From: Bdellovibrionales bacterium
Lineage (GTDB): Bacteria > Bdellovibrionota > Bdellovibrionia > Bdellovibrionales > UBA1609
Assembly (NCBI GenBank): GCA_965243065.1
Contig: CBDETO010000005.1
Location: 1,883,520-1,947,519 of the forward strand
Length of the DNA stretch: 64,000 bases
Direction of reading: 5' to 3'
Made by a program: the position numbers and the translations under genes. Positions within the stretch are counted from its first letter, which is position 1. Every line of letters begins with the position of its first letter. The notes under the pieces are model-generated. The model was given only the letters and a program-made list of their open reading frames with translations, had not been told where the DNA came from and did no database searches. Below are positions 672-17,842 of the stretch, piece by piece.

Positions 672-1217
672 TTAATCTTCACTAGTTTCAGCTATAAAAT
701 AATCTTTTAAAATTTGTTTTTTTGAATTTTCACCCCAATACCAAAGCCGTTCTGCAAATTTCCTAAAATCAACTTTGGGTTTGGCTTGAATAACAAGCCT
801 TCTTAATTGGATCAAATCATTGGGGCTTTCTGATCGCTTAACTTGAAAAATACGTGCTTCCTTAATTCCAAATTGTCTTAAAGCCGCTCCCATACTAAGA
901 TATTTTTGTGGGGCTTGTTTTTTGGAGTGTTCAACTTTATTCCGATTTATACTGTTTTCCTCTGGTACACTCTTTCCAGACTGTTCCTTACCGGATTCAC
1001 TGTGCTTTAAATTTTTTACAAGAAAGAACACTACTCTTTGCCATTGTTTTTCATTGTTCTTGTTTAATTTGTTTTCCAATAATTTGTAAAAAGCAGGTAA
1101 AGTTTCCAGATCTGATGGTTCTGTTACTCTTCTAATCTGTGCTCGATCACCATTGCTGAAATGGTCTTTATTATGAAATTTATTATATACACTTACAAAG
1201 TCAGGTGAATTATTCAT
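672..1217 (-). CDS. casB: Type I-E Cascade small subunit Cse2/CasB (by position and size)
   Basis: 181 aa, basic and helical-looking, no motif I can name. Call rests on its place between cse1 and cas7 in an otherwise canonical I-E order. Confidence 0.6.
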   Translation of the reverse strand: MNNSPDFVSVYNKFHNKDHFSNGDRAQIRRVTEPSDLETLPAFYKLLENKLNKNNEKQWQRVVFFLVKNLKHSESGKEQSGKSVPEENSINRNKVEHSKKQAPQKYLSMGAALRQFGIKEARIFQVKRSESPNDLIQLRRLVIQAKPKVDFRKFAERLWYWGENSKKQILKDYFIAETSED

Positions 1218-1301
1218 TCTATAAAAAGCCCTTTCCGAGAGATAAACATTGTTACTTAAGTGAAGTAAATCTTAAAAAGATAAGATGGTTTATTTAAAAT
1301 T

Positions 1302-2792
1302 TTATGCAGCATTTCTTCTTCCTTCCACCAATAATGTATTTAATTTCCTATTGAGATATTTACGACCGTATTCAATAGCTTTTAAGAGTTTTGGATCATG
1401 TTCATAAGATTGAGTAGTTTCTTTAAAAGTATTTTTAGCAAGACTACAAAATTGTTTTTTGTATGCTTGTATTTTATTAAAATCCAGGTTCCTTAAGGTT
1501 TCATGTATAAGACTTTCTGAGTTATTGAAATATATTTGTTTAGTTAGCGGCTGAAGTTGTTTTTTTATGAAATTAGATCCTTCCTTCCCTTGATTACTGT
1601 ATTCTGATTTTAAGTTTTTACCTATTGAATATATTGAATCATTCAAAAGTTTTCCTGCTTTTAAAGCACATTTCACAAGTTCTATTATTTCACCTTGTTT
1701 TTCACTCCAACCTGACTTCAAACTATATATCTCATGTTTTCTACCTGCAAGACTTTCAGTAGATTTGCCTTTGATATAGCCTCCGACAGAAAGATTGATG
1801 CTTTTTCCCCTGCCTATTCCATTCACATAATGATCCACAACTAAAGCTCGGCTATATCCTTCCTGATCGGAGACAGTATATAATAGAGATAACATTTGTT
1901 TCCATAAATACTTTTCATTAACAGATATATAATAATGTTTGTTCTCGTTTTTCTTCCAACCTATAGGAGTATGAGGGTGTCTCCAAAATCCTTCAATATA
2001 AGATAAACCAGGTTCCTTAAAAAATCCTGTAGCTTTTCTTTGTTCATTAACTTCCAATTTAACTTTAGCAGGTTGATAAAAAAGGCCCCTCAACAATCCA
2101 ATTTTATGAGCATACTCCGGTCGATTTTTATTAAAAGCTATAGGCTTCACCCAACTTGGTTTATTTTCTACATCTTGGTTTCCAATATGCTGTTCTAACA
2201 ACTTTTTATCCAAAATATTGCACCAAACTGTTTTTCTTAAATTTTGAGATTCATCATAAATAAGTGTTGTTATAGGCATAGAGCCTTTAAGCCCTTTAGT
2301 AAAAGCTCTTCCTCCGAGACTAAATCCATTTGTAGCCTGTTGAAATAAAGCTATAGTGGCTCGCCCCAAATCTATTTCCTTCAATTCATCAACTCTATTG
2401 AAATGTGCATTTGAAGATCCCGATGTGCTAGATTTCTCCGGCAAGCCTATAAATAGTTTTTGTAAACTCGTCTCTTTTTTTTTATTTATAGTTTGCATGA
2501 AAGGATATTTAGGATGAAGAACATCAAACCAATCTTGAAAATGAGACACACCTTTATCATAGTTTTCTCCATCCATGGGATTATTATAAAAGGCTTCCAA
2601 TAGATTAAAATTGTTAGGCATAAAAATAACCTGAACCATACAAATAATCATTTGTAAGCAGGCCAACTCCATATCATCTCTATTCAATGCCAATGAATAT
2701 TTACCCTGACTGCAAAGCAATGTCCTCAGAGTGATTTTCTGATTATCCTGCACGGGTATCCATTTTTCAGTCAAAAGATTGTATTCGGGCAT
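1302..2792 (-). CDS. casA: Type I-E Cascade large subunit Cse1/CasA (Cas8e)
   Basis: 496 aa. N-terminus MPEYNLLTEKWIPVQ resembles the conserved NLL-x-W-IPV start of Cse1. Directly downstream of cas3. Confidence 0.7.
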   Translation of the reverse strand: MPEYNLLTEKWIPVQDNQKITLRTLLCSQGKYSLALNRDDMELACLQMIICMVQVIFMPNNFNLLEAFYNNPMDGENYDKGVSHFQDWFDVLHPKYPFMQTINKKKETSLQKLFIGLPEKSSTSGSSNAHFNRVDELKEIDLGRATIALFQQATNGFSLGGRAFTKGLKGSMPITTLIYDESQNLRKTVWCNILDKKLLEQHIGNQDVENKPSWVKPIAFNKNRPEYAHKIGLLRGLFYQPAKVKLEVNEQRKATGFFKEPGLSYIEGFWRHPHTPIGWKKNENKHYYISVNEKYLWKQMLSLLYTVSDQEGYSRALVVDHYVNGIGRGKSINLSVGGYIKGKSTESLAGRKHEIYSLKSGWSEKQGEIIELVKCALKAGKLLNDSIYSIGKNLKSEYSNQGKEGSNFIKKQLQPLTKQIYFNNSESLIHETLRNLDFNKIQAYKKQFCSLAKNTFKETTQSYEHDPKLLKAIEYGRKYLNRKLNTLLVEGRRNAA

Positions 2793-2896
2793 CGTTTGTC
2801 CAATTTTTTAGTGGAATTTAAAAATTATTTCTGATTTTTCTATTTTTTTCAAGTGTTAAGTTAACTTTTTCTATTTTGTCCTGAAGTTAAATAGAA

Positions 2897-5524
2897 TTAG
2901 CATAGGTTTTCTTTTTTTAATCCATATTTAAGAGTATAGGAAAATCTATACCCTTTACAAGTTTCCGATTGCCATTCTTCTCTATCAGGTATTTTAGTGA
3001 ACCGCAAATAGTAGAAACCTTGAATTATCTTTGCTGAAATATAACATTCCCAAGATTTAGGAACAGGGATAGTATTTTGATATAATTCTTCCCATTTTCT
3101 TTTATCTTTTGTTTCAACATTAGGAACTGCTTCACCTTCAAGGAAATAGTAAGCTCCATTTTTTTCGATAACAGGCACAACACTTAAATTCATCTCTCCC
3201 TCTCTTGTTAAAATTGCTGCATTTTCATCTGTGTCATTGAAAAAAGTATTTACGGATGTTAAAAGTCTCGCATTGGATTGGCTAGCATCACTTTCTCTTT
3301 TATACTTTCGAAAAGCCTCTATAATGTTTTCTGGTTCTTCTGTCCATCTCTCTCTTTGATACACTTTTTCTATCCACTCTCTGTAAGCTTTGGGAAATAT
3401 AATGTAACCAAGGGATTCTTTTCCATAAAGTAATTGCTGAGTCCGCCAGAGTGCCCGCTTATTTTTATATATATATTCATGGGTTTTATAGTCCCATTTG
3501 TCTTTTTCTGGAACAACAATAGAGCAAAAAGCTTTTTCAAAACCTTCAGGCCGTTGTTTCTCATGTCTGTGCAATCTGCCTATACGTTGAAATAATAAAT
3601 CCATAGGACATAAGTAAGTAATAAGCCAATCAAAATCAATATCCAAAGATTGCTCCAAAACTTGTGTGCCAACTAAAATACAAGCATCTTTCTTACTATC
3701 TTTGCCATATTTTTGTATCACAGATTTTTCTTTTTTCATTCTATCTTTATAACGATATCGAGAGTGAAAAATATCAACGGAAATCTCTCTCTCCATAAGT
3801 CTTTCCGCTATAACCTGAGCATCATTTACCAAATTGCAGATAATACCAACTTTAGCTGATTTTTGCTTTACCGTATTTGCAATTTTTTCCAATTCGTTTT
3901 CATCAAGAGACATGTTATTGTTTCTCCACAATTCAAAGAAAGTTTTTTTATGTCTTTCATCCTGGTCTAAAGAAAATGCTCTTAAACTTGAGTATTCTTT
4001 TTTGTCTTTATTAGTTTCTCTAACAGACTGTAAGATTAGGGGGTACTTATTCATGTGATCTTCATTCATAGAAATGCTTGAATCCCAAGTTTTTAAAAGC
4101 TGTTCCTTTTGAAACCAAGGCAAAGTTGCAGATAAAAGAATAACACTGCCACCAATTTGCTTCTGTGATTTAATAACTTTTTTTAAAAGACCATACATAT
4201 AGGCATCATAAGCGTGAACTTCATCAATAATAAGAACACTTTTACCGATACCAAAAGAACGAATAAAGTAATGTTTTAACGATGTTATTGTAGATAAAAG
4301 AACCTGATCTACAGTGGTAACAGCGATTTGTCCTAAAAAAGCTCTTTTTCTGGAAACAGCTAACCATTCATTACATTGAACTATAGCTTTATTTCCTTCA
4401 GCACCTGTTTGTTCAAAACTGTTTTTAATCAATTTTTTAAAGTCTTGATTATAAGGACTTTTTCCGTGAGCCAATATAACATTTTGGCCAGAGGAAAATA
4501 TTTTTTCTGAAACAATTCTCAGACGAGGAAGAATAGCATTAGCAGTTGCTTGTGAGGGCAACGCAAAGCTGATGCTGTCTGCAAAACCTTTTGCCAAAAG
4601 CTTAGACGCAAAAGCTATTGCTGCTTCTGTTTTTCCGCTCCCTGTGCTGGCTTCCATAATGATTAAACTAGGAATGATTTTCAATTTAGGAATCAATGTT
4701 TGAACATTTCTTGATCGTAATTCTGGATAAATCTGATTCATTCCTCCTTGAGTAATAATTTCTGTTAACAAGCCAAATTTTTTTAATACTTCTTGAGCTT
4801 TTTCTCTTCTTTTATTAAACCATAAAGATAAATCATGTTGAGATTCTGTAATTTCCTTTTGAGTTGCATATTTAAAATAATCTGTATTAGAACCAAGCCA
4901 ATCACAAACAGCACAAAAACCAGCCAACAAAACAGGAGGTTGCTCTTGTATATTCATATTTTCTAAACTAATGCATTGAGGTTTTAAAAATAATTTTTCC
5001 ATGTCTTTGACAAAATATTCTCTCACTATCTGGTCTCGTCTCCTTTCTTCTTTTGGCACATAAGATGGTAAGAAATTAGGCTCTGCATTATTAGGTATTG
5101 TCCCGTGGTGACCAGCAGTGTGAGCTAGCCAGTTTTGTAAATACCTTTTTTGATTACAGTTTTCAAAAAGAATATCACTTTCATGGACAAACCATTTATA
5201 ACCTCCTTCACCATGATCATAATTTGTATTTACCTCATTAGTATTATAAGGAGCTATTTCAGGAACCTTGTTTTGAAACCGCATATCCAGTTTACCATAA
5301 TCGTGTAAAGCAATAAAAAACAGAACCAACGCTTGTATCTGATTTTCTAAAAAACCAGTCTCTTGCATAAAACTGTTCCGTATGGCAGAGCTATGATTCC
5401 ACCACTCATGAGCTACTGCTACCACATCTAAAGAATGCAAATACAAAGGATGAGACTCAATATCTCCATCTTCTTTTTTTCTAGCTTTACCCCAATATTT
5501 GAAATAAGATTTGGATTGATTCAT
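2897..5524 (-). CDS. cas3: CRISPR-associated helicase/nuclease Cas3 (HD + DEAD/DEAH helicase)
   Basis: 875 aa. N-terminal HD domain (HSLDVVAVAHEWW ... ALHDYGKLDMRFQ), helicase motif I EASTGSGKTEAA, motif II DEVHAYD, later motifs VGTQVLEQSLDIDFD and QRIGRLHRH. Confidence 0.9.
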   Translation of the reverse strand: MNQSKSYFKYWGKARKKEDGDIESHPLYLHSLDVVAVAHEWWNHSSAIRNSFMQETGFLENQIQALVLFFIALHDYGKLDMRFQNKVPEIAPYNTNEVNTNYDHGEGGYKWFVHESDILFENCNQKRYLQNWLAHTAGHHGTIPNNAEPNFLPSYVPKEERRRDQIVREYFVKDMEKLFLKPQCISLENMNIQEQPPVLLAGFCAVCDWLGSNTDYFKYATQKEITESQHDLSLWFNKRREKAQEVLKKFGLLTEIITQGGMNQIYPELRSRNVQTLIPKLKIIPSLIIMEASTGSGKTEAAIAFASKLLAKGFADSISFALPSQATANAILPRLRIVSEKIFSSGQNVILAHGKSPYNQDFKKLIKNSFEQTGAEGNKAIVQCNEWLAVSRKRAFLGQIAVTTVDQVLLSTITSLKHYFIRSFGIGKSVLIIDEVHAYDAYMYGLLKKVIKSQKQIGGSVILLSATLPWFQKEQLLKTWDSSISMNEDHMNKYPLILQSVRETNKDKKEYSSLRAFSLDQDERHKKTFFELWRNNNMSLDENELEKIANTVKQKSAKVGIICNLVNDAQVIAERLMEREISVDIFHSRYRYKDRMKKEKSVIQKYGKDSKKDACILVGTQVLEQSLDIDFDWLITYLCPMDLLFQRIGRLHRHEKQRPEGFEKAFCSIVVPEKDKWDYKTHEYIYKNKRALWRTQQLLYGKESLGYIIFPKAYREWIEKVYQRERWTEEPENIIEAFRKYKRESDASQSNARLLTSVNTFFNDTDENAAILTREGEMNLSVVPVIEKNGAYYFLEGEAVPNVETKDKRKWEELYQNTIPVPKSWECYISAKIIQGFYYLRFTKIPDREEWQSETCKGYRFSYTLKYGLKKENLC

Positions 5525-6307: not shown

Positions 6308-6904
6308 CTAAAACTTAGAGTCATCACAATCTTTTACCGCAGGTATCTCAACTACCTGGCCTTTCTCATTAGCTTGTATTATAGTATCAAGACTTGATAC
6401 ATCTGAATAAGCCCCAATTATAAATGTGTTTGTACCTAATAGACAAGCCGGTGCATTGACACCCTCTGTCCCCGAGTGGGCAGTCCATGTTCCAGCAGGC
6501 GAAGCACCAGTACATAAGGCTCTAGTGGTATGTGCAGCGATGCTACATTTCCCCTCACCATCAGATATAAACTGAAGTGCACTTATACCACCAATAGCAC
6601 TTACAGTACACAAATCAGGAGCGGCTTTACCCGCACCAAAACCAAAAAAACCTTTATTCTTAAAAATAGGGCTGGTACTTCTATCTGTATCCATTCCCAC
6701 TTCTTCCAGATTATGACAATAACTAGAATCCACAGCATACTTAGCACCATAGGCTTTTTGACCATTTCCGACCTCTGCCCTCATTGCCATAACAATAGTA
6801 TTTTTTTTATAATTCCTATAAGAGGGAACAGCTATACTAACGAGCACTCCAATAAGGCCCACAGTGACCAAAATTTCAATAAGTGAAAAACCTTTATTAT
6901 TCAT
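6308..6904 (-). CDS. Type IV pilin / pseudopilin (prepilin-type N-terminal cleavage/methylation domain)
   Basis: N-terminus MNNKG|FSLIEILVTVGLIGVLVSIAVPSY is the class III signal (G-FSLIE with Glu+5). Cysteines occur in the C-terminal half. AAGGAG RBS upstream. Confidence 0.8.
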   Translation of the reverse strand: MNNKGFSLIEILVTVGLIGVLVSIAVPSYRNYKKNTIVMAMRAEVGNGQKAYGAKYAVDSSYCHNLEEVGMDTDRSTSPIFKNKGFFGFGAGKAAPDLCTVSAIGGISALQFISDGEGKCSIAAHTTRALCTGASPAGTWTAHSGTEGVNAPACLLGTNTFIIGAYSDVSSLDTIIQANEKGQVVEIPAVKDCDDSKF

Positions 6905-7364: not shown

Positions 7365-8476
7365 TGTAAATGTTCACAAATTCGCTGACAAAATTGAGTT
7401 TATAAGGGAGCGTTAGAAAGCTCTAAATAACCCAAGATAAGGAGGCGAGTTATGAGGGATAACACACAAGATAAGACCCTATACAGGAACTATATTAGTA
7501 AGTGGCAGTATATGATAAAAGACTATGAGTTAGTAAAGAGGAAGAAACATCCAAAGTTTCGATTTGTAAGTGATTTTTACAAATTCCATAAAACTAATCG
7601 TCAGACTTTTTTAAAATACTATCATCGCTATTTAAGTCATCCTACAGAGGGGAGTCTTGTTCCTCGTAAGAGAGGTCCTAGATGGAGGTTAAGAAGGGGG
7701 GATAATAATAGCTATATTGAGCAGGAGGTGCTAAAACACAGGGAAAATGGTGTTAATAGATACGAGATGTGTCATATACTAAACCCTCTTCTTAAGCAAA
7801 GGGGAGAGGTTCCGATATCGGCTAGTACGGTATATCGTATATTCAGGAGGAAGGGGGTAAATAAGTTGAAGCCGAAGATGATAGAGAATAAGCGCAAGAT
7901 AATAAAGGAGAAGGCGGGGGAGTTAGGTCACATAGACTGCCATCATTTGGGTAAGGACATGATAGTGAAGTCAGGGGGTAAGAGGTACTATTTGGTGTGT
8001 GTTATAGATGATTGCACGAGGATAGCTTGGGCTGAAGTGGTGGAGGATATAAAGAGTCTTACGGTGATGTTTTCGTGTTTAAAGATTTTTAATGTATTGA
8101 GCAAGAAGTATAAGATGGAGTTTAAGGAGGTTATGAGTGATAATGGTTCAGAGTTTTCTTCTCGTAATAATCAGTTATCGCATCCGTTTGAGAGGATGTT
8201 GTTGGAGTTGGGGGTAAGGCATAGATATACAAGGCCGTATAGGCCACAGACGAATGGGAAGGTGGAGAGATTTTGGAGGAGTTTAAATGAGGATTTAATA
8301 GAGGGGAGTGTATTTGAGACGATAGAGGAGTTCAAGGATGAATTGGAGCAGTATTTGATATACTATAATGAGTTTAGACCTCATCAGGGTTTGAATCAGA
8401 AAACACCTCGGCAAATGAATAACTCTTGTGAAAGAGTGAAGAAGTGATTTTGTCAGCGAATTAGTGAACACGTACA
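7365..8476 (+). mobile_element. IS481-family insertion sequence, copy 1 (1112 bp)
   Basis: Terminal inverted repeats TGTAAATGTTCACAAATTCGCTGACAAAAT (7365-7394) vs rc of 8447-8476 TGTACGTGTTCACTAATTCGCTGACAAAAT (27/30). Single DDE/rve ORF. GGAAT on both flanks (7360-7364, 8477-8481). Near-identical copy at 35949-37060. Confidence 0.85.
7452..8447 (+). CDS. IS481-family DDE transposase (rve integrase core)
   Basis: 331 aa: HIDCHHLG...VIDDCTRIAWAEV...SDNGSEFSS...RPYRPQTNGKVERFWRSL...YNEFRPHQGLNQKTP. Identical protein at 36036-37031. Confidence 0.9.
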   Translation: MRDNTQDKTLYRNYISKWQYMIKDYELVKRKKHPKFRFVSDFYKFHKTNRQTFLKYYHRYLSHPTEGSLVPRKRGPRWRLRRGDNNSYIEQEVLKHRENGVNRYEMCHILNPLLKQRGEVPISASTVYRIFRRKGVNKLKPKMIENKRKIIKEKAGELGHIDCHHLGKDMIVKSGGKRYYLVCVIDDCTRIAWAEVVEDIKSLTVMFSCLKIFNVLSKKYKMEFKEVMSDNGSEFSSRNNQLSHPFERMLLELGVRHRYTRPYRPQTNGKVERFWRSLNEDLIEGSVFETIEEFKDELEQYLIYYNEFRPHQGLNQKTPRQMNNSCERVKK

Positions 8477-9301: not shown

Positions 9302-11911
9302 CTAACTTTCTAAATTATCTTTTAATTTTAAACAATGCTGATTTTGCGAATCAAGCTTCAATCCTTGAACTACATATTCTTTAGCTTTAATATGTTGTTG
9401 GATATGAAGAGCAAGCCACGCCATTCTAGAAAAATCATCCGCTTTAGCTTCAGATTTTCTTTTTTCCAATATATCAAGAATTGGTTGTATCAAGTGAAGT
9501 TTTTTAGTTGTACTTATATCAAGTTGAGGGTTTCGTAGTAGCATATTTATCTCATTTGCTGCATTAGAAATTTTCCAAAAATATGTAGTATCGAATTGTG
9601 ACACTTTATTAAGTGTATGAATATAATTAAAGTGATCTTTCCTTTGTTTATATATTTTTGATAACATTATCCAAGCTTGTATTGCATCGCCTTCATTGGA
9701 ATTATCTTGAAGAAATAGATTGAGAGTGTTCTCTGCTTTTTTTAGATTTGAATCAGTACTATCTTGTTCCATGTAAAATCTAGCTAAGAGAATTCTACCA
9801 GGGTTATAGATTTGACAAATTACATCCAGAATAGACTCATACTTTTCAAAAGATTCTCCGTTATCAATGTAGTTAGACACATTTTTAATAAACTCCTCTA
9901 ATCGGTTATAAAGATTCAAAGACATATCATTTTGTCCAACAGAACCAAACATTTGCAATAATTTAACATCTTCTTTGACTTTTGATTTAAGTGGATGGAT
10001 TTTTAATTTTTTTTCTCCAAAGACTTTAGCTGTAAATGGTAACTCGATAAATTCTTGTTGATCCTCTGTTTTAATTTTCTGTATTAAGGAATAACGATAC
10101 AATGATTCAATAGCGTTACCTATATCCTCTATTTCCTCTTTCTCTTTAGATGAAGAAGCCATTAATACAGCTTCTAACGCAGTTTTTGGAACTTTAGAAT
10201 TCCAGCAGGCCAACACCATAAAAGTATATTGTGCACAGGGAGTTAAATTAGCATATGTTCGTTCAAACAAAGCTGTGAGAGCTCTGTCTTGTGTTGAAAG
10301 TGCTTTTGTTATATCTTTTGTTAGTTTCAACTCCCCCATTAGAATTTTTATAATATAAGGATGTCCTTGAGATAAAGAAATAATTTTTTGAGTTTTATTA
10401 CACACAAGTGACTTATCAATATCAAGATGTCCGGCTGTTTGATTTATTAATTGTTTTGATTCTTCTTCTGTCATTCCAGAAACCTCTAAAGGGTAGTCAC
10501 CTCTAAAATCACTAAGTCTTGTAGTTATTAAAATTTTGTTTGGAGATCGAATAAAGGAATCAATCCATTCAAACATTTCTGAAGGGTTTTGTATTGTTTC
10601 AAAGTTATCAAAAATAAAAAGACAGTTTTTAAATTCTTTTGAATCTTTTAATTCATTTTCAAAAAAAACCTTGCAATTGAATTTTTTGTCATTCAATTTA
10701 TCTTCTGAAAAAATGAGCTTTGTATAATATTTAGCTATATCTTTCTGTGAAAAGACATCTGGTTGCACTTGCTTGATTTTAATGCTGTCAGAAAGTAAAT
10801 CAATATCTCTTGCACTAAACCATACTATCCCCACGTATCGCTTTTCATCATATAACTTCTTAACCACCTGAAGAGTTAATGATGTTTTGCCTATACCCCC
10901 AGCACCATGTAATGTTACAACTTCTCGCCGCTTGTCCATCAATAGATCAAATAATTTTTTTTCTAAATCTGGTCTGTCAATGTAATCTATTGCTGGTTCA
11001 GGTACATTAGAAAAACAGTTTCCCTTTAATTCAAATTCATTACGACCCTGGGTTTCACTTTCCGGCAAAGCTCCTGGAGGAGGCAAATATTTTGAAGAAT
11101 CCCCTTGTTCTCTATCACCTGTATTATATGAAAGTAGCTCATATCGCTTGTCATTAAAGCTTCCATTTGCAACAAAAAAGTCGTTTAATTCAGGATCACT
11201 TAAAATAAAAGGAATATACTTTGGTTTTCCAAACCAAATATAAATTCCATTTTCAAATGTATAGATTTTTTCTTTTTTTAAATAGTCAAATACTTTAGTT
11301 TGATTTCCTAAAAAAGAAACTCGATATTTCCCCGATAAATTTCTATATAAGTATGCCCAAGTTCTCTGGAATAAATGAAAATTTGTATAAATCATACGAA
11401 TACTCTCAGAAAGAGGGATTGCCGCCTTTCCTGCAATATCTGATTGAGGAGCACCATGCCCACGAGTCTTATTTCTAAGTGTTGCAAATAAACGTATCCA
11501 ACGATTTAAATTCACTTTAGCAGGCAAAGACTCTGATTGAATGTTGAAATAGCCAAAAGCCTCCTTTAACTTAAGTACTGAATCACATTGCCAATCACCA
11601 GTTTGATGATATTTTGTTAGTTCTGTTTGTTCTACTCTTGCTTCCTGAAGTAGGTGTTGGGAAGCAGGACCTGTTAGTATATCATCAAGAACTTTACCAC
11701 AATCCCCTGGGCTATTGTTACGAACAAGATCATATTCTAATCGATAACGATTTCTGTCTTTATCATCTGTGATAGCAGCCAACATCCCAAAAGTAATTGT
11801 TTTAATTAATGCCTCTCCAGCATTAAGTAATGTAAAAAAGTAAGAAAAATCTGAATCCTCTTTTGCTTTTTCTGTTCTCTCAAGTACTTGTTCTATAAGC
11901 TTATGTCCCAT
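9302..11911 (-). CDS. STAND-class P-loop NTPase (NB-ARC-like) with unknown ~330-aa N-terminal domain and helical-repeat (TPR-like) C-terminus; candidate defence sensor
   Basis: Walker A TLHGAGGIGKTSL, Walker B CLFIFDNFE, long C-terminal helical region. N-domain contains LRNKTRGHG (fits the HEPN Rx4-6H pattern). Track start 11935 is TTG. ATG at 11911 has an AGGGGA RBS, so that start is preferred. Confidence 0.7.
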   Translation of the reverse strand: MGHKLIEQVLERTEKAKEDSDFSYFFTLLNAGEALIKTITFGMLAAITDDKDRNRYRLEYDLVRNNSPGDCGKVLDDILTGPASQHLLQEARVEQTELTKYHQTGDWQCDSVLKLKEAFGYFNIQSESLPAKVNLNRWIRLFATLRNKTRGHGAPQSDIAGKAAIPLSESIRMIYTNFHLFQRTWAYLYRNLSGKYRVSFLGNQTKVFDYLKKEKIYTFENGIYIWFGKPKYIPFILSDPELNDFFVANGSFNDKRYELLSYNTGDREQGDSSKYLPPPGALPESETQGRNEFELKGNCFSNVPEPAIDYIDRPDLEKKLFDLLMDKRREVVTLHGAGGIGKTSLTLQVVKKLYDEKRYVGIVWFSARDIDLLSDSIKIKQVQPDVFSQKDIAKYYTKLIFSEDKLNDKKFNCKVFFENELKDSKEFKNCLFIFDNFETIQNPSEMFEWIDSFIRSPNKILITTRLSDFRGDYPLEVSGMTEEESKQLINQTAGHLDIDKSLVCNKTQKIISLSQGHPYIIKILMGELKLTKDITKALSTQDRALTALFERTYANLTPCAQYTFMVLACWNSKVPKTALEAVLMASSSKEKEEIEDIGNAIESLYRYSLIQKIKTEDQQEFIELPFTAKVFGEKKLKIHPLKSKVKEDVKLLQMFGSVGQNDMSLNLYNRLEEFIKNVSNYIDNGESFEKYESILDVICQIYNPGRILLARFYMEQDSTDSNLKKAENTLNLFLQDNSNEGDAIQAWIMLSKIYKQRKDHFNYIHTLNKVSQFDTTYFWKISNAANEINMLLRNPQLDISTTKKLHLIQPILDILEKRKSEAKADDFSRMAWLALHIQQHIKAKEYVVQGLKLDSQNQHCLKLKDNLES

Positions 11912-12384
11912 AAAAGTCCCCTGACAGAAATTCAAGAATCTACCTGCCTAATATTTAGACTAGGTAAGAAAAAAATGTTTCACTTTTAACCTTTTGATTC
12001 CATTAATAGTGTGAAAAAAAGTGCAATCGTATTGTAGTAATCAGATTATCGGAAATTTTGCCAAAATCCTTGAATCTCCTTTTTTTAATCTTTTTAGTGT
12101 TCAGAACCTCTGTTTATATCATCCGTCAAATTAGAGCTTGCAGAGATTTAAAAAGCCGCTTAGAATTAAAATTATGTTGTTTTTTCTTGAAATAACTTGA
12201 AATTAAGAGACTTTTGACCGATAAATATTACTCTTATAAGATGACATGGCTATCTGAGTGGGTTAGGAAATTAAGTGTATGCCATTTAAAATTTACGGGT
12301 TTTATCAAATATCGTATTTTCTGAAGTGTATGGTCTTTTATAATCGATTTTTTAAGCAAATAATTTGCATCTAAAGGAGGAATT

Positions 12385-12602: not shown

Positions 12603-13595
12603 ATGTCAGAACAAAACACACATCGCAGAAATAAACCAGAAAAACTTGAACTTCCAGAGCTTCCGAAAAACAATCAAGGGAAAAGAACACTAAAAAATCC
12701 ACAACCTCCATTTAGTTGGACTCTGCAACAAATGAAAGCTGATGCTGAAAACCAGATATTCCAGAGGCTAATTGATAATAGAAGAAATCTTATAGGACAG
12801 ATCGAAAAACTCAGATCATCAAAAGTTATTGTTTATTATTCTGTTCATCTTCTTGATTCTGAAGATTTTGAAACAATCTTTGACCTTTTAAATACTCTAG
12901 GAAAACAAAAAAATCTTGATTTATATATTTTAAGCCCAGGAGGTTTTGCTCACCCAGCTTATAAAATTTCTCGCCTTTTTCAAAGTTATAGTGAAGATAA
13001 ATTCTCAGTTTTAATTCCTTACTATGCTAAAAGTGCTGCAACTATTTTGTCCTTAGGTGCTGATGAAATTGTCATGGGTCCTGCATCAGAATTAGGTCCC
13101 ATTGATCCTCAATTTAGGATTTCTAATAATTCTCCTTCTATATCAGCTTTAGCTCTTAAAGAAGCTCTTGATTATATTACTAAAGCGATAAAAGAAGATT
13201 CAAAAATAGCTCCCCTCTATGTCCCTTTATTGGATAAAGTAGATTTAATAACATTAGGTCATTTTGAACGGGAAATAGAAAGTGCAAAGCAATACGGAGA
13301 AATTCTGTTAACTTCCAAAAAAAAGAACCCATTAACAGAAGAGAAAGCAAAAACAGTTGCTAATGACTTTGTCCAACAATATAAGACACATGGTTTTGTA
13401 ATTGATGGGCAAGCTGCCTCTTCTTTGTTAGGTAAAAATACTATCAAGTTAATTAGTGCGGATGATCCTACTTGGCAATGTATGTGGCAATTACATAATA
13501 CATATAATCAATATATAAAAGATAAAAAAACAACTGTTAAGCTCATTGAAACTCTTAGTGCATCATATGAAAAAGGGAATCAGAAAGTAAAATGA
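12603..13595 (+). CDS. ClpP/SppA-fold serine protease of the SDH (serine dehydrogenase proteinase) type
   Basis: 330 aa. LDLYILSPGGFAHPAYKISRLF and IPYYAKSAATILSLGADEIVMGPASELGPIDPQ match the Clp-fold peptidase core as I remember it (Ser in KSAAT as nucleophile). Confidence 0.65.
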   Translation: MSEQNTHRRNKPEKLELPELPKNNQGKRTLKNPQPPFSWTLQQMKADAENQIFQRLIDNRRNLIGQIEKLRSSKVIVYYSVHLLDSEDFETIFDLLNTLGKQKNLDLYILSPGGFAHPAYKISRLFQSYSEDKFSVLIPYYAKSAATILSLGADEIVMGPASELGPIDPQFRISNNSPSISALALKEALDYITKAIKEDSKIAPLYVPLLDKVDLITLGHFEREIESAKQYGEILLTSKKKNPLTEEKAKTVANDFVQQYKTHGFVIDGQAASSLLGKNTIKLISADDPTWQCMWQLHNTYNQYIKDKKTTVKLIETLSASYEKGNQKVK

Positions 13596-13984
13596 CTGAA
13601 CTAAAAAAGATAGAACCTATTCTTCAATATATAATCCTGTGTGATGCTGTAGCTAAAGACCAATCTGGAAAGCCAGTTTATATTGGAGTGTTTGATAGAC
13701 TGAATAAACATACAGTTCTTCCACAATTTGTCGTTGCACTAAAATGGATTTGTGGTTTAGGTTCTCATGCGTTTAAGTTGAAAATACTAGATCCTAATCT
13801 CGATACCCTACAAATAATTGGTGATTTTCCAATACAATTCAAAGCAAAAACAGATGTAATTCATGCTGATTTTCCGATTATCAATTTTAATTTTGATAAA
13901 GTAGGAGTTTATTGGATAGAAATCATATTGAATGATATTAGCCATCTATCTATTCCTTTACCAGTTCATCAGTTACAATCTTAA
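13592..13984 (+). CDS. 130-aa hypothetical protein, translationally coupled to the protease
   Basis: ATG overlaps the protease stop (ATGA at 13592-13595). Beta-rich looking, no motif recognised. Confidence 0.55.
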   Translation: MTELKKIEPILQYIILCDAVAKDQSGKPVYIGVFDRLNKHTVLPQFVVALKWICGLGSHAFKLKILDPNLDTLQIIGDFPIQFKAKTDVIHADFPIINFNFDKVGVYWIEIILNDISHLSIPLPVHQLQS

Positions 13985-13991
13985 GAATTAT

Positions 13992-14008
13992 CTTTTCAGG
14001 GACGATCC
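13992..14008 (+). repeat. 17-bp direct repeat CTTTTCAGGGACGATCC (left copy)
   Basis: Exact copy at 14827-14843. Diverged inverted copy at 5698-5722. Confidence 0.8.
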
Positions 14009-14189
14009 AATCCACTCAAAGATACAAGTCCAATAAAAACTAATGAAAGTTCAAGCTAAATGGACCTATCTTTGTCGTGGCCCCGTTTCGACTGGATGGG
14101 TGTGAACAGGCAAAAACCTGCTTTCACATTTTTAGAGCCTGAAAAACAACTATTTTAATGTAAAAGTCCCAACTAAAAAACAATAGCTA

Positions 14190-14217
14190 TTGACAAATAA
14201 TTCAAAAGACCGATAAT
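14190..14217 (+). promoter_or_regulatory. Sigma70-like promoter (TTGACA-16 nt-GATAAT) in front of module copy B
   Basis: TTGACA 14190-14195, GATAAT 14212-14217. Confidence 0.5.
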
Positions 14218-14320
14218 AAGAAGTGACATCCCCACTCGTTTCGACTGGTGGGTGCGAGCAGGCGAGAGCCTGCTTTTGCTTTTTTAGAACATGAAAAAAA
14301 TTATTATTTATATTGATGGC

Positions 14321-14348
14321 TTGACTTATCCAAAAAAATACACATAAT
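14321..14348 (+). promoter_or_regulatory. Sigma70-like promoter (TTGACT-16 nt-CATAAT) in front of module copy C
   Basis: TTGACT 14321-14326, CATAAT 14343-14348. Same architecture as the 14190 promoter. Confidence 0.5.
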
Positions 14349-14421
14349 AACAGGTAACATCCCCACTTGTTTCGGTGAGTGGGTGCGAGCAGGCGAGAGC
14401 CTGCTTTCGCGTTTTTAGAGC

Positions 14422-14589
14422 ATGAAAAAAACCATTGTTTATATTGACGGATTCAATCTTTACTATCGCATAAAATATACCCCTTATAGGTGGTTAAGCC
14501 TCCAAAAGCTGTCTCAATATTATTTGGATTTAAAACAAAATCAGATAATTAACATTAAATATTTTACGGCAAAGGTAAAAAGGAAATCA
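14422..14589 (+). pseudogene. N-terminal ~56-codon stub of an NYN-domain (PIN-like RNase fold) gene, truncated by IS debris
   Basis: MKKTIVYIDGFNLYYRIKYTPYRWLSLQKLSQYY...IKYFTAKV is the typical start of bacterial NYN-domain proteins. The reading frame then runs into IS3-like sequence. Confidence 0.6.
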
Positions 14590-14812
14590 GTAGATTCCTC
14601 TTTTAGTGGGGAAGAGGTTGAAGTAAAGAAGTTGCGGGCGACAGTGAAGCGTCTCCAAGATGAGAGAGACATTTAAAAAAAAGCCGTGAGTTTCTTTGTC
14701 AAACACGACGGGTAAAGTATGAGTTTATTTTTGCTTACAAAAAAAAGATGGAGTATCTCTTTGATGTGTGAAGTTTTAGAAGTTTCCAGAAGTGGATATT
14801 GCCATTGGCTTC
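14590..14812 (+). pseudogene. Fragment of an IS3-family transposase (orfA end / frameshift region / orfB start), multiply frameshifted
   Basis: KKLRATVKRLQDERDI*KKAVSFFVK (orfA C-terminus pattern ERDILKKA-FA), KYEFIF in another frame, and SLMCEVLEVSRSGYCHWL (orfB start pattern VSRSGYY-W). Confidence 0.6.
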
Positions 14813-14826
14813 CTTCCAACTGTCCC

Positions 14827-14843
14827 CTTTTCAGGGACGATCC
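14827..14843 (+). repeat. 17-bp direct repeat CTTTTCAGGGACGATCC (right copy)
   Basis: Exact match to 13992-14008. The extended 25-nt version 14819-14843 matches rc of 5698-5722 at 21/25. Confidence 0.8.
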
Positions 14844-14864
14844 TTTGTGTTATGTTGAGTTGAA

Positions 14865-15323
14865 ATGAAAAAGATCCACAAATGCTTTTTCTTCTTAACT
14901 ACTTTTGTTTTTTTAGCTGTGTTTTCCAGTTTATGTTATTCTGCCGCTAAGAAAAGATATTCTACTTGCCCTAAAGGGTTTGAAGATTTGTTTCCGCTGG
15001 AGGATTTTGTTCAGCTGATGGTAGATATGAAAATTTATTCAAACCGGGATTTGGTTAAAGCAAAAAGAGAGGGTGATTTTCCTGAAGAGGTTCCTGATAA
15101 GCCTCTTCGGGCTTATCCTGAACTGGGAGGAAAATGGGATGTATTATGGGATGCAGTGCATGCTCGTCGTGTGTCACAAGGGGAAAATGTAGTTGAGCGA
15201 AGAAAGTTGACAGATGGGGAGCTTCGAACCCTTATGTCAGAGGCTTCTGAGGGTTTAAACAGAAAAGTGGCACTAGAGCTAGAGGAAGACTCTTTGATAG
15301 AACAGAAAGAAGGGGGGCATTGA
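14865..15323 (+). CDS. Secreted hypothetical protein (152 aa)
   Basis: Signal-peptide-like N-terminus MKKIHKCFFFLTTFVFLAVFSSLCYSA. No motif recognised. Confidence 0.5.
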   Translation: MKKIHKCFFFLTTFVFLAVFSSLCYSAAKKRYSTCPKGFEDLFPLEDFVQLMVDMKIYSNRDLVKAKREGDFPEEVPDKPLRAYPELGGKWDVLWDAVHARRVSQGENVVERRKLTDGELRTLMSEASEGLNRKVALELEEDSLIEQKEGGH

Positions 15324-15502
15324 TGATCAAAAAGAGATCACCCTGGGGGCAAAAAATCGAAGTAACAATAAAAAAGAAATAGGCCGGTGAGGGAGCGGTA
15401 AATATGGGTACTGGGAGGTTGCAAATTCCTGACCTGTTCGGTTATAAAAGTGGGAAGCTCTAAAAAGAGGGTTCTTTATTTTATTTTTTAGGAATAGATA
15501 TA

Positions 15503-15578
15503 GCGGGAGTAGCTCAATTGGTAGAGTATCAGCCTTCCAAGCTGAGGGTTGCGGGTTCGAGGCCCGTCTCCCGCTCCA
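15503..15578 (+). tRNA. tRNA-Gly (anticodon TCC), CCA encoded
   Basis: Hand-folded cloverleaf: acceptor GCGGGAG/CTCCCGC, anticodon stem TCAGC/GCTGA, loop CTTCCAA. Confidence 0.9.
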
Positions 15579-15585
15579 ACTTAAA

Positions 15586-15660
15586 GCCCATGTGGCTCAG
15601 TGGTAGAGCACACCCTTGGTAAGGGTGAGACCGTGGGTTCGATTCCCGCCATGGGCTCCA
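15586..15660 (+). tRNA. tRNA-Thr (anticodon GGT), CCA encoded
   Basis: Acceptor GCCCATG/CATGGGC, anticodon stem CACCC/GGGTG, loop TTGGTAA, T-arm GTGGG-TTCGATT-CCCGC. Confidence 0.9.
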
Positions 15661-15916
15661 AAGAAAGAAAGAAAGAAAGATGTGGTTCAGCGGGTCCGGG
15701 CCCACCCTTGTTAAGGGTATGGCCCGTGGGTTCGATTCCCGCCATGGGCTCCAAAGAAAAGATGTAGCTCAGCGGGTCCGGGCACCCCCGTTGTTAAGGG
15801 TATGGCCCGTGGGTTCGATTCCCGCCATGGGCTCCAAAGAAAGAAAGAAAGATGTGGTTCAGCGGATCCGGGCCCACCCTTGTTAAGGGTATGTCCCGTG
15901 GGTTCGATTCCCGCCA
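15661..15916 (+). repeat. Three tandem tRNA-Thr-derived pseudo-tRNA units separated by (AAAG)n spacers
   Basis: Units share the exact tRNA-Thr 3' half CCGTGGGTTCGATTCCCGCCATGGGCTCCA. The 5' acceptor strand is replaced (AAAGATG vs GCCCATG), the D-arm is altered, and the anticodon loop is TTGTTAA. ORFs 15680-15886 and 15852-16061 are artefacts of this repeat. Confidence 0.8.
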
Positions 15917-16204
15917 GGAAGTTACGGATTTTGTATTAGAGTTCCGGTTTTATGGTTTTTTAAAGGTAAAAATGGGGTTCAGTAGCTCCGAGGGGTCTTT
16001 GATTGGCAAAAGGTGTGTCTGTATGAAAGTAAAAAATGAGTGTTATATCCATATAAAATAATAATTTAGGTGATTTTTAAAAAAAAAGGGTTTTATTTTT
16101 CTCTAATATTGGCTATTAGTAAAGATTGATCCTTTATTCAATAATAAAATGGATTAGATAAAGTTTATTAAAAACTAAAAATGGAAAAAGGGAGGAACAA
16201 CTCA

Positions 16205-17389
16205 ATGGCAAAAGAAAAGTTTCAGAGAAATAAAGAGCATGTCAATGTAGGTACTATTGGTCATGTGGATCATGGAAAAACCACCTTAACAGCGGCTATT
16301 ACAACTGTATTGGCAAAAACAGGTGGGGCAGAAGTGATGAAATATGATCAAATTGATAAAGCTCCAGAAGAAAAAACTCGTGGGATTACTATTTCTACAA
16401 CTCATGTGGAATACGAAACGGAAAAGCGTCACTATGCTCATGTGGACTGTCCTGGTCATGCGGATTATGTAAAAAATATGATTACCGGGGCGGCTCAGAT
16501 GGATGGAGCTATTTTGGTTGTTTCCGCGGCGGATGGACCTATGCCTCAGACCCGTGAACATATTTTGTTGGCCCGGCAGGTGGGTGTTCCCGCTATTGTG
16601 GTTTATATGAATAAATGTGATCAGGTGAATGATACGGAACTGTTGGATTTGGTAGAAATGGAGATACGCGAGCGTTTGAATGAATATAAATTTCCTGGCG
16701 ATGATACCCCTATTATTAAAGGTTCTGCTTTAAAAGCCCTAGAAGGGGATGCCAAGGCGGAAGAGTCTATAATGGAATTGATGAAGGCCATTGATACGAA
16801 TATTCCCTCGCCGGTTAGAGATAAAGATAAGCCTTTTCTTATGCCTATTGAGGATGTGTTTTCCATTTCTGGTCGAGGCACAGTCGTTACAGGACGAATC
16901 GAAAGAGGTGTGGTGAAAGTGAGTAACGAAATAGAAATTGTGGGTATCCGTGACACGAAAAAAACAGTGGTTACAGGTATTGAAATGTTTAGAAAAGAAT
17001 TGGATCAGGGGGAAGCCGGGGATAATGCCGGTTGTTTGCTTAGAGGTGTGGATAAGACCGATGTGGAAAGAGGACAGGTTTTGGCTGCGCCAGGTACCAT
17101 CACTCCGCATAAGAAATTTAAGTGTGAATGTTATATTTTGACAAAAGATGAAGGGGGTCGTCATACGGCTTTTCTAAATGGTTATCGTCCTCAGTTTTAC
17201 TTTCGTACAACGGATGTGACAGGAGCTATTGCTTTGCCAAAAGGCACGGAAATGGTGATGCCAGGGGATAATGCTACAATGGAAGTGGAGCTTATTTCTC
17301 CTATTGCGATGGAAAAGGGAAGTAAGTTTGCGGTTCGTGAAGGTGGTAGAACGGTAGGAGCTGGTGTAGTAACTGAGGTGCTGGAATAA
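16205..17389 (+). CDS. tuf: Elongation factor Tu
   Basis: [28 protein letters not shown]..., [21 protein letters not shown] precedes the ATG at 16205 (the track start 16181 is an upstream in-frame ATG). Confidence 0.97.
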
Positions 17390-17560
17390 GGATTTATCCT
17401 TCATCGTGTTTGATCCTAGTCTCTCCTGAAGAGGATCATTCCCTTATTTATATGAAAAACCGTAAATCTTTTATTAAATGCGACTAGCGAGAGCATTTGA
17501 GACAGGGGGTAAAATTTTAAAGGATTTTACGAGCGAATAAAAAGGAGTTGTTGATAAACT

Positions 17561-17633
17561 AGGGCAGTAGCTCTAATGGTAGAGCGGCGGACTCCAAATT
17601 CGTAGGTTGGGGGTTCGAATCCCTCCTGCCCTG
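17561..17633 (+). tRNA. tRNA-Trp (anticodon CCA)
   Basis: Acceptor AGGGCAG/CTGCCCT, anticodon loop CTCCAAA, T-loop TTCGAAT. Conserved position between tuf and secE. Confidence 0.9.
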
Positions 17634-17842
17634 TATTTATTCTCAGTTAGGAGATATTAAAATAGGAAAAATAGGGAGAATAGTGGCAATTTATGGAAGA
17701 GGGATTCGAAGCGAGCGAGCGACCTGTGTTGTCTGCGACCAGAGGGAGCAGAGAACACAGGGCAGAAAATCGTGGAGGATTTTCTGAGCAAGCGAGGTGG
17801 GCCTGCGCAGAGAGCGAGCGTGATGCGAGTGAACGAAGTAGG

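Follow-up and report, generated by a model that had tools for sequence, protein, structure and literature searches.

A compact NLR-like STAND protein from a Bdellovibrionales bacterium belongs to a widespread family with a candidate HEPN-type RNase module

A 64,000-nucleotide stretch of the genome of a Bdellovibrionales bacterium (assembly GCA_965243065.1, contig CBDETO010000005.1, forward-strand positions 1,883,520 to 1,947,519; hereafter the window) carries on its minus strand, at positions 9302..11911, a complete gene for an 869-amino acid STAND protein that is an intact member of a large and unnamed bacterial family of NLR-like (STAND) proteins. We lean, with slightly better than even confidence, toward the view that proteins of this kind are self-contained single-protein NLR-like (Avs-like) sensors directed against phages or other mobile elements and equipped with an N-terminal module of the HEPN RNase type, and the window protein would then be a probable abortive-infection sensor. 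This view is based on the combination of an NB-ARC core, a C-terminus with TPR repeats recognized at the level of the family, a HEPN-like signature in the N-terminal module (N-module), a scattered phylogenetic spread, the lack of an obligate partner gene, and the location of relatives in defense contexts.

The open reading frame of the window gene extends from an upstream TTG over positions 9302-11935, and translation from the ATG at 11911 to the stop codon at 9302-9304 yields 869 amino acids that begin with MGHKLIEQVL, in agreement with the family consensus MxHxxIxQVL. This translation confirms the length and position given in a first-pass annotation, in which the strand had not been stated, and the protein aligns over 100% coverage with homologs of ca. 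865 amino acids. The same annotation had recognized a STAND protein of the NB-ARC type, and this call is fully supported. Pfam profile NB-ARC (PF00931) matches residues 319-540 (10292..10957, on the minus strand like all features of the gene described below) with E=1.5e-13 and 51 bits compared to a gathering score of 23.5, and it was matched in 50/50 family members. The Walker A motif GAGGIGKTS (10880-10906) and the Walker B motif LFIFDNFE (residues 431-438; 10598-10621) lie at verified coordinates. Among the non-redundant full-length members, on which all conservation counts given here are based, K342 and T343 of Walker A are each found in 269/269 proteins, as is D435 of Walker B, while E438 is invariant and N436 (268/269) occupies the position where a second acidic residue is usual. 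Judging from this residue pattern, the Walker B sequence hhhhDNFE is atypical for NB-ARC and may affect nucleotide hydrolysis relative to binding. Two further signatures of NB-ARC modules are the RNBS-B/sensor-1 motif "TTR" and the ARC1 motif "GxP". Both are present, the first in ILITTR at residues 460-465 (TTR at 463-465, with T463 and R465 at least 98.5% and T464 at least 90% conserved) and the second as GHP at residues 516-518 (all three positions at least 98.5% conserved). Profile score, Walker A/B pattern, and these two motifs thus all identify the central part of the protein as a STAND NB-ARC NTPase.

The family around this protein is large and uniform. A full-length search returned at least 1,957 clusters (90% identity, E≤1e-10), and the best 120 full-length matches are 861-920 amino acids long, 47-72% identical, and annotated, where they are annotated at all, as "NB-ARC domain-containing protein" or "hypothetical protein". 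In an alignment-based scan of one genome per species, 297 of 185,579 species genomes carry a family member (37-52% identity), and these genomes belong to more than 12 phyla including Acidobacteriota, Chloroflexota, Proteobacteria, Verrucomicrobiota, Planctomycetota, Bacteroidota, Myxococcota, Nitrospirota, Gemmatimonadota, Patescibacteria, Omnitrophota, and others. Such a sparse distribution that crosses phyla indicates horizontal transfer. A profile search with the N-terminal region alone recovered 738 representatives at 50% clustering, the best 150 of which show the ca. 865-amino acid architecture, are fragments of it, or are one of two longer proteins; as far as these matches go, the N-module is therefore specific to this STAND family. 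Proteins of ca. 300 amino acids that at first seemed to be standalone N-domains come from split or frameshifted genes in which the remainder is encoded behind them (308+554 and 472+381 amino acids). Unusual lengths were observed for P0374 (1224 amino acids), in which transposase-like HTH_23/HTH_28/HTH_29 domains precede the N-module, probably due to a merge of gene calls, and for P0376 (1266 amino acids), which has a longer TPR C-terminus.

AlphaFold2 predicts the N-terminal region with high confidence, both for residues 1-320 (predicted local distance difference test [pLDDT] 92.1, predicted template modeling score [pTM] 0.85) and for residues 1-183 alone (pLDDT 94.1, pTM 0.90). The models show two sub-domains, i.e., a helical one formed by residues 1-183 (11363..11911), which is the candidate for a divergent HEPN RNase, and a beta-rich one formed by residues 184-305 (10997..11362; model strands within 185-301) that is packed against it, as reflected by the pTM of 0.85 for both modules together. 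The core of the helical sub-domain consists of helices at residues 4-19, 21-45, 136-150, and 157-182, and an insert of five helices (residues 46-135, with helices between 54 and 122) separates the second from the third. Two motifs stand out in this core. The first, E33-A-L-I-K37 (11801..11815), is of the form Ex3[KR] and lies within helix 21-45, while the second, RNKTRGH (R146-N-K-T-R-G-H152; 11456-11476), is an Rx5H motif with an asparagine following the arginine. In the models, R146 and N147 close helix 136-150 (136-148/150), H152 is held in the subsequent loop (149/151-156), and the next helix begins at residue 157 and runs to 177.

The residues of both motifs are conserved to the same degree as K342 of Walker A and D435 of Walker B, with R146 in 268/269, N147 in 269/269, H152 in 268/269, and G153 in 268/269 members, while E33 is found in 266/266 members without a gap at this position and K37 in 267/268. 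Eight positions of the helical part are at least 98.5% conserved, and E33, K37, R146, N147, and H152 account for five of them. The bare Rx4-6H pattern is not above chance, given that the window protein contains five instances compared to 1.8±1.3 in shuffled sequences and that the stricter form R[NDH]x3-5H appears in 23% of shuffles. What counts is conservation, and among these instances the one at 146-152 is the only conserved one. The beta-rich sub-domain has its own invariant or near-invariant residues (G222, N249, G250, S261, and S285). Of these, S285 (at least 98.5% conserved) belongs to the linear motif LPxSETxG at residues 282-289 (LPESETQG in the window protein; 11045-11068), which sits in the sole low-confidence stretch of the N-region model (pLDDT ca. 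56) and could act as a latch, undergo modification, or mediate an interaction. We also applied mean-field direct coupling analysis (DCA) after filtering out N-terminal gap artifacts that had dominated the initial result. The couplings obtained are noisy (effective number of sequences, Meff, ca. 189) and link residues 31-32 to 142 and 151, helix 2 to helix 4, and helix 1 to helix 3, while the H152 loop couples with residues 210, 253, and 265 of the beta module.

HEPN domains have been defined by an Rx4-6H motif in which N, D, or H follows the arginine, along with an acidic residue in helix 2 that is usually part of an Ex3[KR] motif, and inserts between helices 2 and 3 are frequent (PMC3710099). 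All of these features are found in the N-module, i.e., an Rx4-6H motif with the polar residue, its placement at a helix end and in the adjacent loop, the Ex3[KR] motif in helix 2, and the insert between helices 2 and 3. The placement of R146/N147/H152 and E33/K37 in the models, viewed together with the published definition, favors the HEPN interpretation, and we consider it probable that the N-module is a HEPN RNase that has diverged strongly and into which a beta domain is integrated. A HEPN effector had already been suggested in the first-pass annotation based on RNKTRGH. The part of this proposal that concerned the conservation of R and H among homologs has withstood scrutiny, and the HEPN-like placement as well as the Ex3K motif, which had gone unnoticed there, strengthen it further, while the fold and profile searches suggested there returned no HEPN match.

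Several results weigh against this interpretation and the favored view as a whole. As the first-pass annotation had anticipated in calling a ca. 330-residue N-terminal domain unfamiliar, the N-terminal ca. 305 amino acids have no match in NCBIfam, PADLOC, PHROGs, or the sequences of the PDB (phmmer), and the N-terminal 306 amino acids of the window protein match nothing in Pfam even at E≤10. Neither a profile of the HEPN clan nor any other Pfam family was matched by 32 family N-domains at the same threshold, and a profile search of PDB sequences gave a single, spurious match (E=0.16). Foldseek searches of the PDB and BFVD with the model of the entire N-region, and of the PDB with the helical domain alone, returned nothing significant (best E 0.2-0.5, TM-score ≤0.26), and HEPN entries were absent from the best 50 matches listed for each search. 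An hhalign comparison of the family alignment with E. coli RnlA, which is a weak test because it involves a single sequence, gave no match. A four-helix up-down topology and a proximity of E33 and H152 are suggested by secondary structure and the noisy DCA, and the segment that separates helix 2 from helix 3 is long at 90 amino acids. In the NTPase, Walker B reads DNFE instead of DD/DE. The comparison with Avs families proposed earlier yielded no match either, since no Avs or other STAND model of PADLOC-DB v2.0.0 recognizes the window protein at E≤0.01; the one PADLOC match at this threshold is a spurious one to a DRT-associated model (E=0.0014, 16 bits). Finally, we found no experimental work on any family member in the literature. 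With regard to the structural searches, it should be considered that Foldseek performs poorly when a small helical bundle carries large inserts. The lack of a Foldseek match is therefore weak evidence against HEPN, also because the best 50 matches were listed.

The same observations can be read differently. A possible, if doubtful, alternative is that the protein is a defense STAND whose N-terminal ca. 300 amino acids make up one novel effector enzyme of the alpha+beta type that does not descend from HEPN domains. R146, N147, H152, E33, and K37 would then be part of another active site together with R197, D244, N249, E258, S261, and Y262, e.g., of a different nuclease or of an enzyme directed at nucleotides or NAD, and the HEPN signature would be convergent or coincidental. 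This alternative would account for two confident models that have no Foldseek counterpart and for the missing HEPN profile match, and it agrees well with the prediction of both sub-domains as one rigid unit, with the coevolution of the H152 loop and positions of the beta module, and with the near-invariant polar residues that the latter has of its own. The frequency of R[NDH]x3-5H in shuffled sequences further shows how easily part of the signature arises by chance. However, a conserved Ex3K in helix 2 that occurs jointly with RNx4H at a helix end and loop of an all-alpha domain is precisely what defines HEPN, some relatives are embedded in restriction-modification (R-M) loci as is typical of HEPN genes (see below), and the Foldseek result counts for little with this kind of fold.

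The C-terminal region (residues 541-869; 9305..10291) comprises a winged-helix/ARC-like part followed by a TPR-like region that is the presumed sensor. The helical-repeat C-terminus noted previously holds at the level of the family, where TPR_2, TPR_16, TPR_14, and TPR_8 match 9-17 of 50 members, while the evidence in the window protein itself is sub-threshold and consists of TPR_8 alone (E=0.053). Residues 651-869 have the lowest conservation of all domains (0.51 compared to 0.57-0.65 elsewhere), which fits a role as sensor. Nevertheless, this C-terminal third is still unusually conserved, which suggests that the ligand may be conserved as well.

To learn from the genomic context of the family, we surveyed 83 related loci and their neighbors. 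Unbiased clustering of the neighboring open reading frames revealed no universal partner gene. This bears directly on two genes that face the STAND gene in the window, an SDH-type ClpP-like serine protease (12603-13595, plus strand; Pfam PF01972, E=6.9e-19; phrog_11747, E=1.9e-38) and a DUF6941 protein (13592-13984, plus strand). It had been proposed that the STAND gene and this protease cassette form one defense locus or a two-module system, e.g., with the protease as effector or activator of the STAND protein. The genes are indeed adjacent, diverge from a shared intergenic region of 691 bp, and all have a low GC content (ca. 0.30-0.34). However, tblastn (E≤1e-3) detected a homolog of the SDH protease or of DUF6941 within ±10 kb in 0/83 related loci, and the locus of a 67%-identical relative lacks the pair as well. 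A partnership as a property of the family is thereby effectively refuted, and we assign next to no probability to a two-module system. Given the absence of these homologs and of any universal partner, the STAND protein is a single-gene system. The protease and DUF6941 genes, which overlap by 4 bp and have no PADLOC match, look like a two-gene operon of their own that is separate from the STAND gene.

The sole recurrent neighbors of the family are subunits of type I R-M systems, identified through Pfam as HsdM (N6_Mtase with HsdM_N), HsdS (Methylase_S), and HsdR (HSDR_N, SWI2_SNF2, and T1RH-like_C). In 15/83 loci, a type I R-M system is encoded no more than 5 kb away (binomial P=2.7e-12 relative to a null of 1.53%, the published value for proximity to any defense system). 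The gene directly upstream is hsdS or hsdM in 11/83 loci, often with a 4-bp overlap or junctions of less than 50 bp, and eight of the 83 loci show the arrangement hsdM-hsdS-gene-(0-3 genes)-hsdR. These R-M-embedded copies are scattered over many branches of the family tree, and the HsdR proteins of different groups are 20-35% identical compared to 52-70% for the STAND proteins. Taken together, the scattered tree positions and the divergence of HsdR indicate that the association with type I R-M systems arose repeatedly. Other defense genes are found nearby, too. A copy in P. aeruginosa (e.g., WP_220274311) is located on an integrative and conjugative element (ICE) and adjoins a Lamassu-like cassette, GmrSD adjoins the 67%-identical relative, and further neighbors match the MADS, AriA, bSEFIR, PDC-S05, and PDC-S23 models, while integrases are present in six of the 83 loci. 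As a separate observation, in two metagenome-assembled genomes of Flavobacteriales, the HsdR gene located downstream of the STAND gene (L029:5296-9168 and L030:12618-16382) contains an inserted segment that resembles a Y1/REP-associated transposase (..NHVHVLFRP..) and is flanked by proline-rich repeats of the GGPPGPP type, with HsdR being otherwise normal.

Regulators of the AfsR/SARP type likewise combine NB-ARC and TPR. One could therefore imagine a STAND protein of non-defense signaling, e.g., a regulator of transcription or development comparable to MalT or AfsR/SARP, whose N-module is a binding or output domain and not a toxin. A weak match to NCBIfam FxSxx_TPR (E=3e-7, far below its cut-off) points in this direction, and with 48-50% identity across phyla, conservation of the protein as a whole is unusually high for a gene involved in an arms race. 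We nevertheless judge this scenario to be highly improbable. Pfam scans of the window protein found no HTH, wHTH, or BTAD domain, no target operon is conserved in the neighborhood, and the presence in ca. 297 of 185,579 species genomes is patchy in the way expected from horizontal transfer. In addition, the gene recurs in type I R-M operons and beside Lamassu, GmrSD, MADS, and PARIS-like genes as well as integrases, and the invariant constellation of R, N, H, E, and K looks catalytic. Clustering with non-defense signaling STAND proteins, which would have spoken against a defense function according to the first-pass annotation, was not seen, and the relatives are instead located in defense contexts.

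If the favored view of a HEPN-armed, Avs-like sensor is correct, a chain of events can be drawn up on the model of Avs proteins and HEPN enzymes. At rest, the protein would be an inactive nucleotide-bound monomer, and its TPR region would bind a ligand derived from infection, which for the R-M-embedded copies could be a signal tied to the failure or inhibition of restriction. Nucleotide exchange would then cause oligomerization via the NB-ARC module and thereby juxtapose the N-modules, so that a composite endoRNase site that needs no metal would be assembled from two Rx5H motifs, as is the case in other HEPN enzymes. The protein would finally cut tRNA, mRNA, or rRNA and thereby bring about growth arrest, i.e., abortive infection. 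In this process, the beta sub-domain packed on the H152 loop would probably aid binding of the RNA substrate or gate the active site. An unlikely but specific variant of these ideas would be a "guard" NLR whose conserved TPR region monitors the integrity of R-M systems or senses anti-restriction proteins, and whose activation frees a ca. 300-amino acid alpha+beta RNase module with a fold that has no counterpart in the PDB, be it an extremely divergent HEPN with a beta domain or a new nuclease fold. Such a guard function would explain both the repeated independent insertion between hsdS and hsdR of unrelated operons and the conservation of the sensor across phyla.

While the family falls into no system of PADLOC-DB v2.0.0, its kind, i.e., Avs/NLR-like STAND proteins and HEPN-STAND-TPR fusions, is already known. 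Avs1-5 and Avs7-24 (Lee et al. 2026, PMC13581612) likewise consist of a single polypeptide in which a STAND NTPase is preceded by an effector at the N-terminus and followed by a TPR-like sensor at the C-terminus, are located in defense islands, and spread by horizontal transfer, and ligand-induced oligomerization is expected for both groups. However, the window protein is small with its 869 amino acids and has ca. 330 residues after the NB-ARC module, which is below the sensor cut-off of 400 amino acids used in this 2026 census of STAND proteins, which distinguishes 589 clades (PMC13581612). Furthermore, the family's effector has no profile of the CDD/Pfam type and would thus not be flagged by the effector criterion of the census, and the whole protein including the sensor is unusually conserved. 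Fusions of HEPN, STAND, and TPR domains were noted as early as 2013 under "other fusions" in one HEPN family row of a table (Npun_F6454, MED222_16016, Desac_1927, and B. cereus gi 229028907; Anantharaman et al., Table 1, PMC3710099). They share an N-terminal Rx4-6H domain, a STAND ATPase, and TPRs with the family described here and were predicted to act as RNase effectors in conflict systems. Compared by description, they differ in that the window N-domain matches no Pfam family (HEPN clan included) and that an extra beta module is present between the helical domain and the NTPase.

The genomic context of the family recalls a different group of HEPN proteins. The gene prrC, which encodes a HEPN anticodon nuclease, is part of the hsdMSR operon of PrrI, an R-M system of type Ic, and linkage to R-M systems is among the commonest contexts of HEPN genes in general (PMC3710099). 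Like PrrC/RloC, the STAND family combines an NTPase and a (candidate) HEPN-type RNase in one protein, and 8/83 relatives are encoded between hsdS and hsdR, which is the position of prrC. However, the NTPase of the family belongs to the STAND NB-ARC type and not to the ABC ATPases, the RNase-like domain is found at the N-terminus instead of the C-terminus, a TPR sensor is present, and most members including the window copy are not encoded beside R-M systems. More broadly, N-terminal HEPN fusions to DUF499 ATPases (BREX-related Hma), DARNA/PD-T7-3, and ApeA resemble the proposed function in that a "last-resort" suicidal HEPN RNase is gated by an ATPase or a ligand and that HEPN dimerization forms the active site, as we propose for the STAND family.

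The surroundings of the window copy contain further defense and mobile genes; hsd genes are absent from its vicinity. As stated in the first-pass annotation, the STAND gene diverges from the protease cassette and is located near cas genes. These genes, i.e., type I-E cas3 (HD and helicase), cse1/cas8e, and cse2/cas11e (672-5524, minus strand), lie ca. 3.8 kb away, and their operon runs past the left edge of the window. A transposase of the rve family (IS3/IS481-like) with an HTH_32 domain is encoded between the end of cas3 and the STAND gene (7452-8447, plus strand), and this position suggests that the island owes its assembly or rearrangement to mobile elements. A pilin-like open reading frame with an N-terminal methylation motif (N_methyl) is located nearby (6308-6904, minus strand). 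Another pilin-like N_methyl open reading frame was observed near the STAND gene of the 67%-identical relative (L084:4484-5119), and this shared neighbor may reflect common ancestry of the surrounding region. The STAND gene shares a low-GC block with the type I-E cas genes and the insertion sequence, and this block abuts a tRNA-Gly/Thr-tufB cluster. From ca. 0.31 in the block of cas, STAND, and protease genes, the GC content climbs to 0.38-0.48 across window positions 14000-17700, where tRNA-Gly(tcc), tRNA-Thr(ggt), tuf, and tRNA-Trp are encoded, and this step fits an insertion of defense genes beside a tRNA/tuf hotspot.

Bacterial immunity relies to a major extent on STAND/NLR-like sensors, most clades of which are uncharacterized. 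The family described here is large, compact, and uniform, which makes it experimentally tractable, and its N-terminal effector module is missed by standard domain-based annotation of defense systems. If this module were shown to be an RNase, the family would add a widespread group of HEPN-type Avs proteins and would serve as a test case for how STAND oligomerization can switch on an RNase that depends on dimerization. The recurrent embedding between hsdS and hsdR further offers a way to ask whether an NLR-like protein backs up or guards restriction as PrrC does.

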